A stretch of DNA of 64,000 nt from a virus (lineage: Duplodnaviria; Caudoviricetes). The position numbers were made by a program, and so were the translations under genes. The notes below the pieces were generated by a model. That model searched no databases. It saw nothing but the letters and a program-made list of their open reading frames with translations, and was not told the origin of the DNA. Position 1 is the first letter of the stretch, and each line of letters opens with the position of its first letter. The DNA lies in IMG/VR virus record IMGVR_UViG_3300031998_000074, positions 2,403 to 66,402 of that record. One strand, given 5' to 3'. Of this stretch, positions 6,229-28,800 are shown piece by piece.

Positions 6229-6244
6229 AAATATTGTATACTGT
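6227..6244 (+). promoter_or_regulatory. phage promoter-like motif AAAAATATTGTATACTGT
   Basis: exact repeated intergenic motif, with TGTATA 17 nt upstream of TATACT. Confidence 0.7.
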
Positions 6245-18580: not shown

Positions 18581-18598
18581 AAAAATATTGTATACTAT
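18581..18598 (+). promoter_or_regulatory. phage promoter-like motif AAAAATATTGTATACTAT
   Basis: repeated motif with TGTAAT 17 nt upstream of TATACT; precedes a non-coding tract. Confidence 0.7.
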
Positions 18599-18600
18599 AT

Positions 18601-19056
18601 TGCTAGGCCATTAAGCTACAAGGGGCTTTGCGACCTAGCCCACGCATCATCAGACTTATGTCTTTTGAATTGTCCGACATAGCACACACCTGGTGATGCC
18701 CAGTATGGAGAGGGAGAAATAGTCCGAGTCATTAGACGGCGTCCGGCGCATACCGGAAACGACAGCATCCTGAGTTTGGTTTAATGGACCATGAAGCGTA
18801 ATCCGTATTTAAGGGTTATGCCTAAACCAGGAAGGGACGAGAGGGTTTTTGATTATTTTACCCTGACTTCCTTTAAACCCCACATATGCCTCCATACCCA
18901 AAGAGATTCCGGTCTCTCTTAATCGCAAGTACTGGAGTGAACCCGCACTGATTACGGGAGGGATACCGACACCACACGTCGGTCGTGGTTAAAGTTCACC
19001 TAGTTTCTTGAACACCTCAGATGATGCCTGGTCCGGTAGGAAACCCGGACAAATTT
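18601..19056 (+). ncRNA. candidate structured ncRNA, about 450 nt, family unknown
   Basis: no credible ORF; long-range helices 18644-51/19020-27, 18703-10/18890-97, 18931-42/18994-19004; promoter motif before and hairpin after. Confidence 0.7.
19031..19056 (+). terminator. GC-rich hairpin, possible terminator or processing site
   Basis: GTCCGG-TAGGAAAC-CCGGAC followed only by AAATTT, so the U-tract is weak. Confidence 0.4.
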
Positions 19057-19597
19057 GAATATGTACGAGTATATTGAAAGTATTGTAATTATATTTGAGA
19101 ACTGCGAGTCTTTAACAATAAAAGGTAAAGATGTTGCGTACTTAAATTTATGGTCAGAACACGGTAAGTTTAATCTTGATACATTAGAGGGTGTTGTTTT
19201 TGACAACTACTTTGTTAACTTAGATATTGACTTATCTGAACTACCAAAAGAACAAGCAGCGGACCTAGTGAAACGTAAAGATATAACGTATTTAAGGCTT
19301 AAGATTAAAGGCCTAGACAATATCCTTGACGATACACTTACATTTCAAGTAGCATATCCTTGTTATTTCGATAGCTGGTTACCTAATCCGTACCAGGATA
19401 ATGAAGTAACAATTAATGAAGAGTCCGGGCATAATATACTGAATATATACATTCATAAATATTGGTCTTTGTTATCAATTAGACAGTGGCTTACAGATCA
19501 AGTCAAATCGTTCTTTAGATACTTTCCGAGAAATGTCTTGTGGATGTTAGAGAGTGCGTGGCTTGGTATAAAAGACCACCTAAAGTGGAGACACTAA
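19055..19597 (+). CDS. hypothetical protein
   Basis: 180-aa ORF co-oriented with neighbours. Confidence 0.65.
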   Translation: MNMYEYIESIVIIFENCESLTIKGKDVAYLNLWSEHGKFNLDTLEGVVFDNYFVNLDIDLSELPKEQAADLVKRKDITYLRLKIKGLDNILDDTLTFQVAYPCYFDSWLPNPYQDNEVTINEESGHNILNIYIHKYWSLLSIRQWLTDQVKSFFRYFPRNVLWMLESAWLGIKDHLKWRH

Positions 19598-19881
19598 TGG
19601 CCACGTTTCTGAGATGCCCTCACTGTGGAAAAGTGCAGAGGGATCTGCAAGGTGAGCATCTCTCTAGAAACGACGCTGGTGACTTACTAGACTTAAATGG
19701 GCGTATTATTAACGAGTACCCGGATGAGAAATGGTTACCAATATGGTGTGAGCACTGTCATAAAATATCAAGAGGGTACTATTGGGAAGAATGTACCCGA
19801 GATGATTGGGGCTGGTGGGACCGAGCCCGGGCCTGGTGGCTTTGGCACTGGGATGCGTTGGTAGATAGATTTAGATTTTAA
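19597..19881 (+). CDS. zinc-finger hypothetical protein
   Basis: CPHC and CEHC; start moved to the ATG after GGAG. Confidence 0.55.
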   Translation: MATFLRCPHCGKVQRDLQGEHLSRNDAGDLLDLNGRIINEYPDEKWLPIWCEHCHKISRGYYWEECTRDDWGWWDRARAWWLWHWDALVDRFRF

Positions 19882-19959
19882 GGAGTAGTGGTGTAGCCTG
19901 GCTAACACGCTCGCCTGTCACGCGAGAGATCGAGGGTTCAAATCCCTTCTATTCCGCCA
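19882..19959 (+). tRNA. tRNA-Asp(GTC)
   Basis: cloverleaf GGAGTAG/CTATTCC, anticodon stem CTCGC/GCGAG with loop CTGTCAC, TTCAAAT T-loop, encoded CCA. Confidence 0.95.
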
Positions 19960-20840
19960 GATTTCCAGTAGGCCTATCTGGCCGAAGTTATGGAAAACTC
20001 CAATGGGTACAGAGTATAAATTGGCCCTGTTGAGTATAAGTAGATAAAGTTCCCGGCTACCACATAGCGGACAGTACTCAGTCTAGTAGAGGACCTCCGT
20101 CAAAATCAATATGTGCTCCGAATACTAGGATAGTAGCGGACTCAACAATCAGGTGGCTAATGGTTGCCTGACTTCCTTAGGGATATGAAGAAAAACTATC
20201 TCTTACTTGGTGCATAATAAACCATGTACCAAGTCGATTTGAAAATTTGTGGCTTAAATGAAATACACATCGGGGTACATACCGTTGTGAATGTGTCAGC
20301 TACAGTGTGCTACGGAAGATAGGGTCTCATGTTCGAGAAGGACGTCCTCTCCTATAAACCAACAAGCTAGCAAGAGTTGGGAGCACCTTGTTAAAATGCT
20401 GAACTGCGAAGAGCCCGTGAATTTCGGGATGCCCACATAGATTTGTGTGCTTCGATGAGTGAGTTGTAGCAGTTGTATGGCCGACTATGACTCGATGTAG
20501 TTCGGAGTGCCTGGCGAAAATGCATTGAGTTAACCTAACGACTAATGCCATACATAGGTGCATTGAAGTGATGTTAGCCGGGTGTAGGCACCGGCCGGTA
20601 CACGAAACAATCTACATCTGTTAGAGAAGAGTGGCGTAGGTAAAACTACCAGAGGCTTCTTTAACCACACATACTTTGGAAAAGGATATAACCTCCCAGG
20701 CTTAAATGTTGTTAACATGTCAATGACGGCATTGCCTAAACAGGGGTGGATAATGAGCAAAACGTCCACTATGGTTGGATAATTCCATAAGGTAAAATAT
20801 TATCAGAAACCAGCCGGAAGTGCTCGTCCGGCTGGTAAAG
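19960..20840 (+). ncRNA. candidate large ornate ncRNA, about 880 nt, tRNA-adjacent (GOLLD/ROOL-like placement)
   Basis: no credible ORF; more than 12 local hairpins plus long-range complementarities; closes with a 10-bp hairpin at 20809-20836. Confidence 0.7.
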
Positions 20841-20848
20841 AGTTAAGT

Positions 20849-21232
20849 ATGATTAAAGAGTTATTAAGACAATTGAAAGAACATATCGTGTGGTTTTGGG
20901 ATTACCCATTACAGACACCTCGTATTATACGTAGTTTCTGTATGTTTCTATGGAAAGGGTACTCGGAGGTTGATCTTTGGTCTGTTGATTATTATCTGTT
21001 GAAAAAGTTCAATGAGATTATAGTTGACTTTGCTAAAGATGCAGATAACATAGGTTACCCAGGAGATCTCACACATGAAACATGGCAAGAATTGTTAAAG
21101 AATGCAAAGGAATGGTCTGACAAGATCTTAGCAGACGAGTATAGTACAACTGAGGATCTAATAGAGCTTGAGAACATTAAGCAAAAATGGTTGTTCTTTA
21201 TGTACGATCGTTTCTTTGACTTATGGACCTAA
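20849..21232 (+). CDS. hypothetical protein
   Basis: 127-aa ORF co-oriented with neighbours. Confidence 0.65.
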   Translation: MIKELLRQLKEHIVWFWDYPLQTPRIIRSFCMFLWKGYSEVDLWSVDYYLLKKFNEIIVDFAKDADNIGYPGDLTHETWQELLKNAKEWSDKILADEYSTTEDLIELENIKQKWLFFMYDRFFDLWT

Positions 21233-22367: not shown

Positions 22368-22370
22368 GAT

Positions 22371-22407
22371 TTAACAGCTGGGTTTCTAATATTTCCCCAG
22401 CTGTTAA
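22371..22407. terminator. 12-bp inverted repeat after tRNA-Thr
   Basis: TTAACAGCTGGG...CCCAGCTGTTAA. Confidence 0.6.
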
Positions 22408-22439
22408 AAAGGTCATGTTGAGACCTTGGTATGAACATT

Positions 22440-22470
22440 GTTATATATATATATATATATCTTATATAAC
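22440..22470. repeat. (TA)n tract within a GTTATATA/TATATAAC inverted repeat
   Basis: about nine TA units in an intergenic region. Confidence 0.85.
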
Positions 22471-22524
22471 TTGACACATAGAGCCCGGACCCTCCTTCAA
22501 ATAAAAAGTCCGGGCCTTTTAAAC

Positions 22525-22542
22525 AAAAATATTGTATACTGT
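22525..22542 (+). promoter_or_regulatory. phage promoter-like motif AAAAATATTGTATACTGT
   Basis: exact repeated motif; preceded by a GCCCGGAC/GTCCGGGC hairpin at 22483-22515. Confidence 0.7.
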
Positions 22543-22890
22543 TATTGAAGGTGCACAACTTCCCTCTAAACGTTGTTTGCTCTCAAAAAAACACCCTCTA
22601 CCGGGGACCCCAAAATTATGCTTTTCACCCGGTAGACCAGCTCACTACACTGAGTGCCCGTTGGCTACAAAGCGGCGTTTATTTGTGGCAGTCTCCTAAA
22701 GGGAAAGAAACCATGGTTACTTTATCTTCCGTGTTTTCTGTTGTTTCCCTTTACCTCCTTGCGAAAGCTAAGAGTGCCAGGACCACTCACGAGACGAAAA
22801 AGTACTGCTCCGTCGGATACTAGCGTAAATTAGTATTAATTGGGCTTCCGGGCCAAACTACAAATCCTCCCGGCCTGGAAGCTCTTATTT
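22543..22890 (+). ncRNA. candidate structured RNA or long 5' leader, about 340 nt
   Basis: helices 22597-605/22628-36, GTCTC/GAGAC, GAGTG/CACTC, 22844-54/22872-82 followed by a U-rich run. Confidence 0.55.
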
Positions 22891-26807: not shown

Positions 26808-27512
26808 ATGTTGACACCAGCTGATAGAGAGTATTTAGCCAAGAAGAAGATAGAACTGGTAGACAATTGTCCTAAGTGTCATGGACGGTCATCGAACTGT
26901 GATTGTGCTAAACGTTTTTCCTTGGAATACGCTAAAATAAGAGCGAACATTCCGGAAGCGTACCGCGAATTCACATTAGACCAGTTAATACATCCTGAGT
27001 TACAGGAACAGAAAGTAGAGCTTGAGAAGTATACTAAGAAATTTATAGAAGGGACAGCCTCTGATCTTTTAATTGCCGGATCATCAGGGACCGCTAAGTC
27101 ATCTGTGGCCGCGTATCTTTTAACAGAAGCATTAAAAATGCGCAAGTCCGGGTACTTCTTTTATAGTATCCGCACCGTGAAGGATATAATATCCAGCACG
27201 TGGGATAAGAATGCACCTGTAGATCCATTATTGCAAACATTAAAAACTAGCGATTGTATCGTTATTGATAATTTTAATTCCGGGCTCGGAATCCCGGACT
27301 TCATGAAAGCGTATATTGTGGAGACTTTAGATACAAGAAGGCTTTACGGTAAAAGGACAATTTTAGTGGCCAATGGTACCACAAATGCTATTGATAGCGA
27401 TAGCAAGGAAATTATAAGCCACTTGAAATTGACCAAAATACAGCTTACAGGCTTTAATTATAAGGATAAAGTGGTCAAGGCTACCAAGGGGAAAAAGAAT
27501 GCAAGAAAGTGA
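26808..27512 (+). CDS. DnaC/IstB-like helicase loader
   Basis: CPKC zinc motif, ANIPEAY, GSSGTAKS, IVIDN; directly upstream of DnaB. Confidence 0.72.
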   Translation: MLTPADREYLAKKKIELVDNCPKCHGRSSNCDCAKRFSLEYAKIRANIPEAYREFTLDQLIHPELQEQKVELEKYTKKFIEGTASDLLIAGSSGTAKSSVAAYLLTEALKMRKSGYFFYSIRTVKDIISSTWDKNAPVDPLLQTLKTSDCIVIDNFNSGLGIPDFMKAYIVETLDTRRLYGKRTILVANGTTNAIDSDSKEIISHLKLTKIQLTGFNYKDKVVKATKGKKNARK

Positions 27513-28800
27513 GAATACGGGCCTGGAACGCCGCTTTACGATTTGTGTCATACATAAAGAAGAAGCTTTACTCTATGCACGCAACATGGGCTTTAAGCCT
27601 AAAATGCTTACAGAGCAGCAGTATCAAGATTTGATAGATGGTGTTTTTAAGTATTATGATACCTACCATAAGCTACCAGATGTAAGTGCATTTTCATTGT
27701 TTTTACAAACATTAAATAAGAGCAACCTAGAACAAAGGTCCAGGTCCGGACTTTTATTCCAGGAACTTTTAATCGAAGAACCGGACACAGATGAATATCG
27801 TGTAGTTGTAGATGCTATTATGCGGACCTATAAAGCAAATGAATTGAAGCGTCTTGTTCTAAGCTACCAGAATAACTATAACGCCTTACATATTGAAGAT
27901 ACGTTGAATGCTTTGGCAGAGAAGACCGCAGAGTTACGTGACTTAGGCACGGCAGAAGAACTTATATCAGAGTACACAGCCCGGGCACAGGAACGTATCA
28001 AGCACTATGAAGACGTTAAGAACAAAAAATATGAAACTGGTTTATTGTACAATTTTCCCACATTAAATAGAGTTACCGGAGGACAGGACCGTAGAACCTT
28101 ATGGGTTATTCGTGGTGGTCCGAAAGCCGGTAAGTCGACAGCTATGTTAAATATGGCAAATCATGTGTGTGAAAACGGTAAAAATATTGTATACTTTACT
28201 GCAGAGGTATCTCGCGAAGTTTTGGAACGCAGATTGGACTCTTTAAGAACTGATATACCTGCCATGGTTATTAAGATGGGTCAAATGACCGAAGAGGAAG
28301 AACGCAGATACCGCGATACACTTTTAACGCATAACCCGAATAGAGGTAAATTCGTCATAGTTGACGGTGGTTATATGACAACGGATACTATTCTTAACGA
28401 CGTTAAAAAATTAAAGAGCGAGATGACGATTGACTTGGTTGTTGTAGACTATCTCGGTCTTATTAAAACCCCGTATAAAGCAGAGTCTAGATGGGTTGAA
28501 GTTGGTGAAGTCGCAAAGGCTTTACGTGCTCTGGCTAAGTCCGAAAATGTTCCTGTTCTGACTGCTAACCAGTCCAACCGCAAAGGTGAAACTGCAAACG
28601 CACAAGAAGTTGATAGAACCTGCGACCTATTAATAGACCTGACGAGAGACAACCCGGATGAAGATGCAATTGCCGGAGCATCAGTTGAAGTAACAGCAAC
28701 TATAGTTTTCTCTCGTGACAGCGGCTTGGCTACATGGCCTTTAGATTGCCGCTTTGACTTTGGTAGGATGGAGGAGCCGATTACGGCTTTCACACGGTAA
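27499..28800 (+). CDS. dnaB: replicative DNA helicase DnaB-like
   Basis: GGPKAGKS, FTAE, VVVDYLGLI, TANQSNR. Confidence 0.9.
   Translation: MQESENTGLERRFTICVIHKEEALLYARNMGFKPKMLTEQQYQDLIDGVFKYYDTYHKLPDVSAFSLFLQTLNKSNLEQRSRSGLLFQELLIEEPDTDEYRVVVDAIMRTYKANELKRLVLSYQNNYNALHIEDTLNALAEKTAELRDLGTAEELISEYTARAQERIKHYEDVKNKKYETGLLYNFPTLNRVTGGQDRRTLWVIRGGPKAGKSTAMLNMANHVCENGKNIVYFTAEVSREVLERRLDSLRTDIPAMVIKMGQMTEEEERRYRDTLLTHNPNRGKFVIVDGGYMTTDTILNDVKKLKSEMTIDLVVVDYLGLIKTPYKAESRWVEVGEVAKALRALAKSENVPVLTANQSNRKGETANAQEVDRTCDLLIDLTRDNPDEDAIAGASVEVTATIVFSRDSGLATWPLDCRFDFGRMEEPITAFTR
28180..28197 (+). promoter_or_regulatory. promoter-like motif copy inside the dnaB coding sequence
   Basis: AAAAATATTGTATACT exact match, encoding KNIVY. 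Confidence 0.4.

Follow-up and report, generated by a model that had tools for sequence, protein, structure and literature searches.

What does a phage encode in nearly 900 nucleotides (nt) that follow a transfer RNA (tRNA) gene and contain no credible protein gene? The question is raised by IMG/VR virus record IMGVR_UViG_3300031998_000074 (Duplodnaviria; Caudoviricetes), of which we analysed positions 2,403 to 66,402, a stretch of 64,000 nt referred to here as the window. A reading made earlier from the sequence alone (the sequence-only reading) had noticed a gene-free gap beginning at the CCA end of a tRNA-Asp gene and proposed that it encodes a large, densely structured noncoding RNA (ncRNA), co-transcribed with the tRNA and processed from it, and belonging either to the GOLLD/ROOL class or to a new one. 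Comparison with related phages indicates that the tract very probably holds a conserved, strand-specific structured RNA element, and places it outside the known RNA families. The locus is defined by three features, the second of which is free of open reading frames (ORFs):

19882-19959, + strand: tRNA-Asp (GTC) with encoded CCA, identified by ARAGORN and scoring 62.8 bits with the Rfam tRNA model
19960-20848, + strand: ORF-free structured tract of 889 nt, between tRNA-Asp and the orf127 start at 20849
20849-21232, + strand: orf127, 127 aa, modelled as a five-helix protein; a gene of this family follows six of the seven RNA copies

Relatives were obtained by way of the flanking protein families; direct DNA searches gave none. 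A search with the downstream 127-aa protein led to L003 (64% amino acid identity) and to the near-identical strains L004-L006. L129/L130 (93% nucleotide identity overall), L131/L132 and L133/L134 (36% amino acid identity) and L135 came from a profile search with the upstream 180-aa protein, and an orf127 profile added L144 and L145/L146. The element is present in six lineages (the window, L129, L003, L131, L133 and L144/L145). In all six it begins 2-5 nt after tRNA-Asp (2-3 nt in the window), and all seven copies trail a tRNA, L144 having a second, complete paralogue directly after tRNA-Ser. The tRNA-Asp gene follows a gene of the 180-aa family, directly or after one small ORF, in every lineage found except L135. 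The size of the ORF-free tract ranges widely, from 345 nt in L131 through 454 in L003, 477 in L144, 889 in the window and 897 in L129 to 951 in L133.

A covariance model, R1, was built from five sequences with the structure P1-P4 described below. Among these five, 93.1% of cells hold standard pairs, and sliding the 3' partners by 1-3 columns lowers this to 29-46%; 14 of 27 pairs have changed on both sides, and none of 500 shuffles reaches the observed value on four measures, while on a fifth, which concerns further pair types, five of 500 do. R1 found three sequences outside the training set, each just downstream of a tRNA, at E values of 1e-5 to 3e-8: one after tRNA-Asp in L144, one after tRNA-Asp in L145, and the L144 copy after tRNA-Ser. 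Across all eight sequences, 93.2% of cells are paired (32-48% when slid), both-sided changes are found in 20 of 27 pairs, and no shuffle in 500 reaches the observed value on any of the five measures. The covariation that the sequence-only reading had proposed to seek among homologues is therefore present in the related phages, and its large structured RNA directly after a tRNA is backed by six lineages. The proposed family definition, a covarying P1-P4 core on the strand of a tRNA gene and 2-5 nt behind it, applies to all eight sequences. G-U pairs are frequent in the helices; since each would be A-C on the other strand, the structure belongs to the transcript of the + strand.

The conserved 5' core consists of the following features, numbered as in the window:

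19962-19996, + strand: hairpin P1, with outer stem 19962-67/19991-96 enclosing a GGCC-UAUCU-GGCC hairpin at 19971-83
19997-20028, + strand: P2 (19997-20000/20012-15), an A-rich linker and a candidate pseudoknot
20028-20147, + strand: variable insertion domain closed by the 8-bp helix TGTTGAGT/ACTCAACA (20028-35/20140-47)
20149-20171, + strand: P3, 7-bp stem TCAGGTG/TGCCTGA with conserved loop GCUAAUGGU at 20156-64
20172-20197, + strand: P4 (20172-75/20187-90) and a conserved (U/A)(U/A)AAACU motif

The first ~35 nt after the tRNA are nearly invariant and fold into P1, whose internal loop (AGUA opposite GAAGUUA) is unchanged throughout; the P1 loop of the window equals that of L003 across 27 nt. 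All P1 cells are paired in the eight sequences, and four of the six outer pairs have changed on both sides, the outer stem occurring as TTTCCA/TGGAAA, TTCTCA/TGAGGA, TTCTCA/TGAGAA and TTTCCA/TGGGAA. The AGUA/GAA arrangement presumably resembles a motif of the loop E or sarcin-ricin type. In P2, six of six pairs show both-sided change (ACTC/GAGT in the window, CGTTG/CAACG in others). Its loop (20004-08) can form four to five pairs with 20024-28 in all five lineages examined, the middle pair being A-U in two of them and G-C in the remainder, which suggests an H-type pseudoknot. An alternative pairing of the P4 loop with the P2-P3 junction was rejected, since it is not possible in L131; the P2-loop pseudoknot is compatible with every lineage.

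Between P2 and P3 the window has an insertion of 120 nt, which is missing from L003 and L131; L133 has a different one of 62 nt at the same site, likewise closed by an 8-bp helix. Helix-closed insertions of variable size at fixed sites are typical of large ncRNAs. In P3, 92% of cells are paired and six of seven pairs have changed on both sides; this stem, too, contains G-U pairs that are A-C on the opposite strand. The P4 stem is CTTC/GAAG, CCTC/GAGG, GTCT/AGAC, CCTG/CAGG or CGTC/GACG, depending on the lineage, and is followed on its 3' side by the conserved motif UUAAACUU, which in the window reads AAAAACUA.

Downstream of the core, conservation declines: only the first ~550 nt of the tract are recognisable in other lineages, and the last ~340 nt are lineage-specific. 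The features of this part are:

20205-20234, + strand: P5, 11-bp hairpin ACTTGGTGCAT/ATGTACCAAGT
20235-20264, + strand: conserved single-stranded linker of 30 nt, ..UUUGAAAAUUUGUGGCUUAAAUGAAAUA, 80% identical to L003 1291-1325
20265-20296, + strand: P6, hairpin ACACAT/ATGTGT
20359-20380, + strand: P7, hairpin CCAAC/GTTGG, in two lineages only
20395-20505, + strand: AAUGCUGAACU motif (20395-405) and P8 (20399-404/20500-505), enclosing the conserved GCUUCGAU (20449-56)
20506-20808, + strand: lineage-specific 3' extension, GC-rich, with many predicted hairpins and a minimum free energy (MFE) z score of -2.4
20809-20836, + strand: 10-bp terminal hairpin, separated by 12 nt from the start codon of orf127

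P5, the linker, P6, P7, the AAUGCUGAACU motif and P8 are collinear in window/L129 and L003, and some of them can be recognised in L133 and L131. From P5 to P8, and again in the terminal hairpin, full pairing is retained between the window and L003 with unrelated sequence. P5 of L129 keeps 11 of 11 pairs through changes from G-U to A-U and from U-A to U-G, and L003 has a perfect 9-bp helix of unrelated sequence at this position, preceded by two extra GAAA-tetraloop hairpins between P4 and P5. Motifs similar to the linker are found in L133 and, directly 3' of tRNA-Asp, in L144/L145. The linker is followed by counterparts of P6 in L003 (CCCCGAA/TTTGGGG) and L133 (CTGTGCC/GGCAGAG), and the L003 counterpart of P7 (ACAAC/GTTGT) stands immediately before a shared AATGCTGAACT motif. 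The AAUGCUGAACU motif occurs in all five lineages examined, and for P8 the window and L129 share CTGAAC/GTTCGG, L003 having CTGAACT/GGTTCAG. Every copy examined except that of L133 closes with a stable hairpin, from which the next start codon is 10-45 nt away; the analogous terminal hairpins are those of L003, L131 and both L144 copies (in L144 by eye).

The hairpins listed by the sequence-only reading are all present in the window, and comparison lends structural support to P3, P5, P6, P7, the helix that closes the insertion (20028-35/20140-47) and the terminal stem. Its further long-range pairings, CTATCT/AGATAG, GCTACA/TGTAGC, GTATGGC/GCCATAC and GATGTAG/CTACATC, can be formed by the sequence, and some appear in the MFE fold; comparison gave them no support.

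The gap itself was confirmed as free of credible ORFs under four genetic codes: no ORF of more than ~100 codons spans 19960-20848 under table 11, table 4, TAG=Q or TAA=Q, the alternative codes having opened no frame through it. When stop-to-stop peptides of this tract were compared with the tracts of relatives, they matched only the nucleotide-conserved P1 motif, and did so in several frames and on both strands, so there is no conserved protein; nor is any ORF conserved across the region. ARAGORN and the Rfam tRNA and tmRNA models found tRNA-Asp and tRNA-Thr as the only tRNAs of the window, and no cloverleaf or tmRNA within the tract.

The GC content of the tract is 0.42-0.49, compared with ~0.35 in the flanking genes. 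As a whole, the tract folds better than its dinucleotide shuffles, as the sequence-only reading had suggested checking: the MFE z score is -3.54 on the + strand, where 0 of 20 shuffles equal it, and -2.12 on the - strand, compared with -0.91, +0.28 and +0.30 in three control coding stretches of equal size. The local folding energy of 200-nt windows and of three sub-domains could not be distinguished from the coding background, and thermodynamics by itself is therefore weak evidence.

Known RNA families were searched with cmscan and the 4227 families of Rfam 15, for the window at the gathering threshold and for 19700-21000 at E <= 10 with permissive filters; among relatives, L003 was searched at E <= 5, L129, L131 and L133 at E <= 0.1, and the L133 and L131 tracts at E <= 10. 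Only tRNA was matched in the window and the homologous tracts searched, and the Rfam 15 models of GOLLD, ROOL, OLE, HEARO, group I and group II introns, tmRNA and RNase P detected nothing. A match to 'cow-rumen-3' at 20148-20230 (12 bits, E 9) was not reproduced in relatives and was taken as chance. Since there is no Rfam match, the element is not a member of GOLLD, ROOL, OLE or the group I introns, so that, of the two proposals in the sequence-only reading, GOLLD/ROOL membership falls and the new large ncRNA fits. The element is a new family, outside every Rfam family.

In setting and scale the RNA most resembles ROOL and GOLLD. ROOL (RF03087), an ornate RNA of ~580 nt first described from cow rumen metagenomes, is often found in phages or prophages adjacent to tRNAs, with which it is possibly co-transcribed; its function is unknown (PMC5737381). 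The present RNA shares the phage setting beside tRNA genes, here trailing a tRNA in seven of seven copies, but it has no match to the ROOL covariance model and no recognised motif in common with it, and it follows the 3' end of a tRNA at a fixed distance of 2-5 nt and is known from one small phage clade only. GOLLD (RF01998) is likewise a giant structured RNA near phage and prophage tRNAs with variable and conserved parts; its model gave no match, and the present RNA differs in being conserved at the 5' end and variable at the 3' end.

Other comparisons concern the neighbouring gene, the presumed biogenesis and the association with mobile elements. OLE RNA (RF01071) is encoded immediately upstream of oapA, the gene of a small partner protein with which it forms a complex. 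Six of seven copies of the present RNA similarly precede orf127, but there is no match to the OLE model, and the orf127 product, by its looks a soluble protein of five helices, had no informative match to a known fold. In phage T4, stable RNAs of ~120-140 nt (species 1 and 2, rnaC/rnaD) lie among the genes of the tRNA cluster and are co-transcribed and processed with them; the likeness lies in the presumed biogenesis, the T4 RNAs being far smaller. Long ncRNAs near tRNAs are known also from Staphylococcus phage K (PMC9241854). With respect to RNAs of the T4 and phage K type, the present tract has no sequence similarity to 50,697 deposited phage genomes except in the tRNA. Group I introns resemble the element as structured RNAs of hundreds of nucleotides associated with tRNA genes and homing endonucleases, but the element stands after an intact tRNA and not inside one, has no flanking exons and matches no intron model.

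The surrounding sequence suggests how such an RNA might be expressed. One upstream feature is relevant here:

18585-18596, + strand: 12-mer ATATTGTATACT, a putative promoter motif

Five exact + strand copies of ATATTGTATACT occur in the window (at 6231, 12055, 18585, 22529 and 28184), compared with ~0.008 expected. The first four head gene blocks and the fifth lies inside the ORF at 27499-28800; the motif likely represents a phage-specific promoter class. No promoter- or terminator-like site beyond chance was found between tRNA-Asp and the RNA or within the RNA, and a hairpin with a short U-run can be seen by eye near 22485-22522. A single polycistronic unit may thus extend from 18585 to this hairpin and contain a first noncoding tract, two small ORFs, tRNA-Asp, the RNA, three small ORFs (including orf127) and tRNA-Thr. 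If established tRNA biology applies, excision of the upstream tRNA-Asp by host tRNA-processing enzymes would set the 5' end of the RNA, with RNase P cutting on the 5' side of the tRNA and either RNase Z or RNase E together with trimming on the 3' side. Once free, the RNA would act as a stable folded ncRNA during infection and would perhaps work with the orf127 protein in the style of OLE. We infer transcription, processing, independence from an mRNA and partnership with orf127; the complete mechanism, in which a discrete large ncRNA is co-transcribed, released by tRNA processing and perhaps joined by orf127, is the reading we favour, and it seems to us evenly balanced between right and wrong.

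Several observations weigh against a uniform, independent RNA of this kind. The independent lineages are few, and the alignments that were counted had been fitted to model R1; the eight sequences include two pairs of close relatives (L129 and the window, L145 and L144 copy 1), and the P1-P2 alignment is doubtful for L144 copy 1 and L145. Copy 1 of L144/L145 has no convincing P1-P2, and its linker motif comes directly after the tRNA, in a different order, so the architecture is not uniform and the order of domains seems rearranged. Tract identity between the window and L129 is 97.1%, not above the 98.2-98.7% of the adjacent genes, and this pair accordingly offers no evidence of extra constraint. 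The extension at 20506-20808 has no counterpart in L003, L131 or L133, and its structure has no comparative support. Finally, the terminal hairpin of the window lacks a U-tract and stands 12 nt from a start codon; the RNA could be just a 5' untranslated region.

This last point leads to the main rival, in which the tract is a structured 5' leader that acts in cis on a gene of the orf127 family, through translation, mRNA stability or processing, and not in trans. An AlphaFold model of orf127 is a confident five-helix bundle (pLDDT 90.9); Foldseek and VIA-align returned generic helical-bundle matches only, and so gave no functional clue. The window's orf127 has no Pfam match, and 12 of 24 members of its family match only PHROG 11543, which has no known function. 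In L144 the unit of tRNA, RNA and orf127 occurs twice, behind tRNA-Asp and behind tRNA-Ser, with both protein genes intact. This tandem duplicated module spans L144 3328-5315 and consists of tRNA-Asp, a 477-nt tract and a 125-aa gene, followed by tRNA-Ser, a 494-nt tract and a 127-aa gene.

A leader would account for the orf127 homologue behind six of seven copies, for the joint duplication of RNA and gene behind two different tRNAs, for the position of the stable terminal hairpin beside the ribosome-binding site in all copies examined but that of L133, and for the window having no terminator between RNA and gene. It is harder to reconcile with L133, where the 5' core is complete, an HNH endonuclease gene and tRNA-Ser come next, and 7 kb of sequence contains no homologue of orf127. 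In L131 a terminator-like hairpin with a U-run, at the 3' end of the RNA, separates it from the next gene, and the distant orf127 homologues (L136-L141 and L143) have no such tract upstream. At 345-951 nt, with variable domains closed by helices, the element is also far above known bacterial leaders in size, and it is best conserved at its far 5' end, by the tRNA, and not in the part nearest the gene. We consider the leader unlikely, if the most serious of the alternatives.

A mobile or self-splicing element, or the remnant of one, such as a group I-like intron or decayed homing-endonuclease cargo beside the tRNA, is suggested by the relatives, whose corresponding region includes tRNA genes interrupted by introns as well as free-standing genes for HNH and PD-(D/E)XK endonucleases, by the greatly varying tract size, and by the exchange of the L129 tRNA gene itself as a cassette. 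We think this most improbable. The tRNA-Asp is complete with its CCA, and the ORFs on either side are of full length and align with their orthologues from one end to the other, which leaves no exons to join. In relatives that share just 36% identity in the flanking protein, the element still lies at the same site and in the same orientation, no ORF remnant was detected in it, and GC is raised across the whole tract, unlike in decayed coding sequence. No Rfam intron model was matched, that of the group I intron (RF00028) giving nothing at E <= 10 in the window, L131 and L133 tracts; the sensitivity of these models is limited, as at E <= 0.1 they also gave no match for the putative introns in tRNA genes of L131 and L133.

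Those introns are of interest in their own right. With introns allowed, ARAGORN placed intron-containing tRNA genes at L131 3971-4228 and L133 about 900-1545, comprising a tRNA-Asn with a 182-nt intron and another tRNA with a 572-nt intron that contains an ORF of the PD-(D/E)XK family. We assume that their cores resemble group I (IC3) introns, for which Rfam gave no match at E <= 0.1. The same two phages have long noncoding tracts (L131 2926-3400 and L133 55-389) that open with sigma-70-like promoters and share motifs, for example ACCTCAAAAGRCCCTA..CGACGG..GGGACGATTTGA; these may be yet another RNA family of the phage clade.

An equally remote alternative is that the tract works as DNA (a replication origin, a packaging site or an array of protein-binding sites) or is a spacer without function. 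The invariant 27-nt P1 loop could be a binding site for a protein on DNA, but compensatory changes preserve many hairpins, the G-U pairs work on the + strand only, and no repeats or iterons were seen; a spacer, for its part, would not retain five to nine helices across lineages in which the neighbouring protein falls to 36% identity. That the element is a highly diverged member of GOLLD or ROOL is scarcely credible: the phage, tRNA-adjacent and rumen setting and the similar size range are shared (PMC5737381 for family properties), but nothing except tRNA was matched in Rfam 15 up to E <= 10 with the window or four other lineages, the L129 tract having been searched at E <= 0.1.

The structured RNA family is narrowly distributed, being found in six lineages and in bovine or gut assemblies only, with a bovine-gut origin shown only for strains of the window, L129 and L003 types. 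Similarity searches of the window, L133 and L131 tracts against the 50,697 deposited phage genomes gave tRNA matches only, or none. Exact scans with 20-23-mers of the P1 loop found nothing new in IMG/VR or in GTDB species genomes and, in metagenomes of the Joint Genome Institute (JGI), only the window lineage, L003 and one chance match in a high-GC coding region. A 15-mer scan gave ~118 chance matches, none resembling the tract, and a pattern for the tRNA 3' end had no match in IMG/VR. Locus searches with single proteins and an orf180 alignment in IMG/VR and genome contigs yielded no relatives, or no more than a truncated contig; contigs of four bovine or gut DNA runs held L129-like and L003-like variants only and no additional lineage; and a paralogue search with model R1 found no second copy in the window.

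The window is the bulk of a 66.4-kb IMG/VR viral contig with an estimated completeness of 42%, and the DNA runs that contain its sequence are bovine gut metagenomes. Genes of the contig include those for GroEL, an FtsH-like protease, ThyX, a PolA-type polymerase, a helicase and baseplate proteins; no deposited phage has a DNA polymerase more than ~30% identical to the one encoded here.

Upstream of the RNA, the tRNA-Asp gene has been swapped as a cassette: window 19882-19959 and L129 1410-1481 are 54% identical, whereas the DNA on either side is 97-98% identical. The RNA starts at the identical position behind either version, and the replacement as in L129 was seen in one bovine-gut run too. 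Between the 180-aa gene and tRNA-Asp lies a CxxC-rich ORF of 113 aa (window 19540-19881), on which gene callers disagree in near-identical contigs (46, 94 or 113 aa); it is absent from L003 and has a 102-aa counterpart in L133.

Two further ORF-free tracts occur nearby. The one at window 18600-19054, directly after the promoter motif at 18585, has a GC content of 0.47 and is 97% identical in L129; its segment 18682-18790 is ~81% identical to L003, compared with ~65% DNA identity for the flanking 180-aa gene. It had no Rfam match at E <= 5 and is probably a further structured RNA or leader. The other, at window 22368-22840, 3' of tRNA-Thr, contains a strong 10-bp hairpin at 22373-22406; further along are another GC hairpin, at about 22485-22522 and with a short U-run, and the copy of the promoter motif at 22529.

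Bacterial and phage RNAs of more than ~300 nt with conserved complex folds are rare, being limited to the rRNAs, RNase P, group I and group II introns, OLE, GOLLD, ROOL, raiA and few others, and most of the large structured RNAs that are understood perform unusual biochemistry. Tentatively, and with some doubt, we envisage the present RNA as a new giant ornate phage class, coupled to a tRNA and released by its processing, whose several domains would fold into a compact particle; this might be multimeric, as ROOL and GOLLD are, or a ribonucleoprotein that includes the orf127 protein. The RNA might serve the phage in taking over translation or tRNA metabolism, or in counter-defence, and might be one of at least two to three such RNAs in an operon of ~4 kb. 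The family adds a new, covariation-supported example of a large structured RNA. Its natural versions of 345-951 nt define a minimal core for structural work, and its junction with the 3' end of a tRNA gene makes a biogenesis based on processing directly testable. It also means that uncultured rumen phages contain large RNA families that have been overlooked by catalogue searches because the families are narrow.

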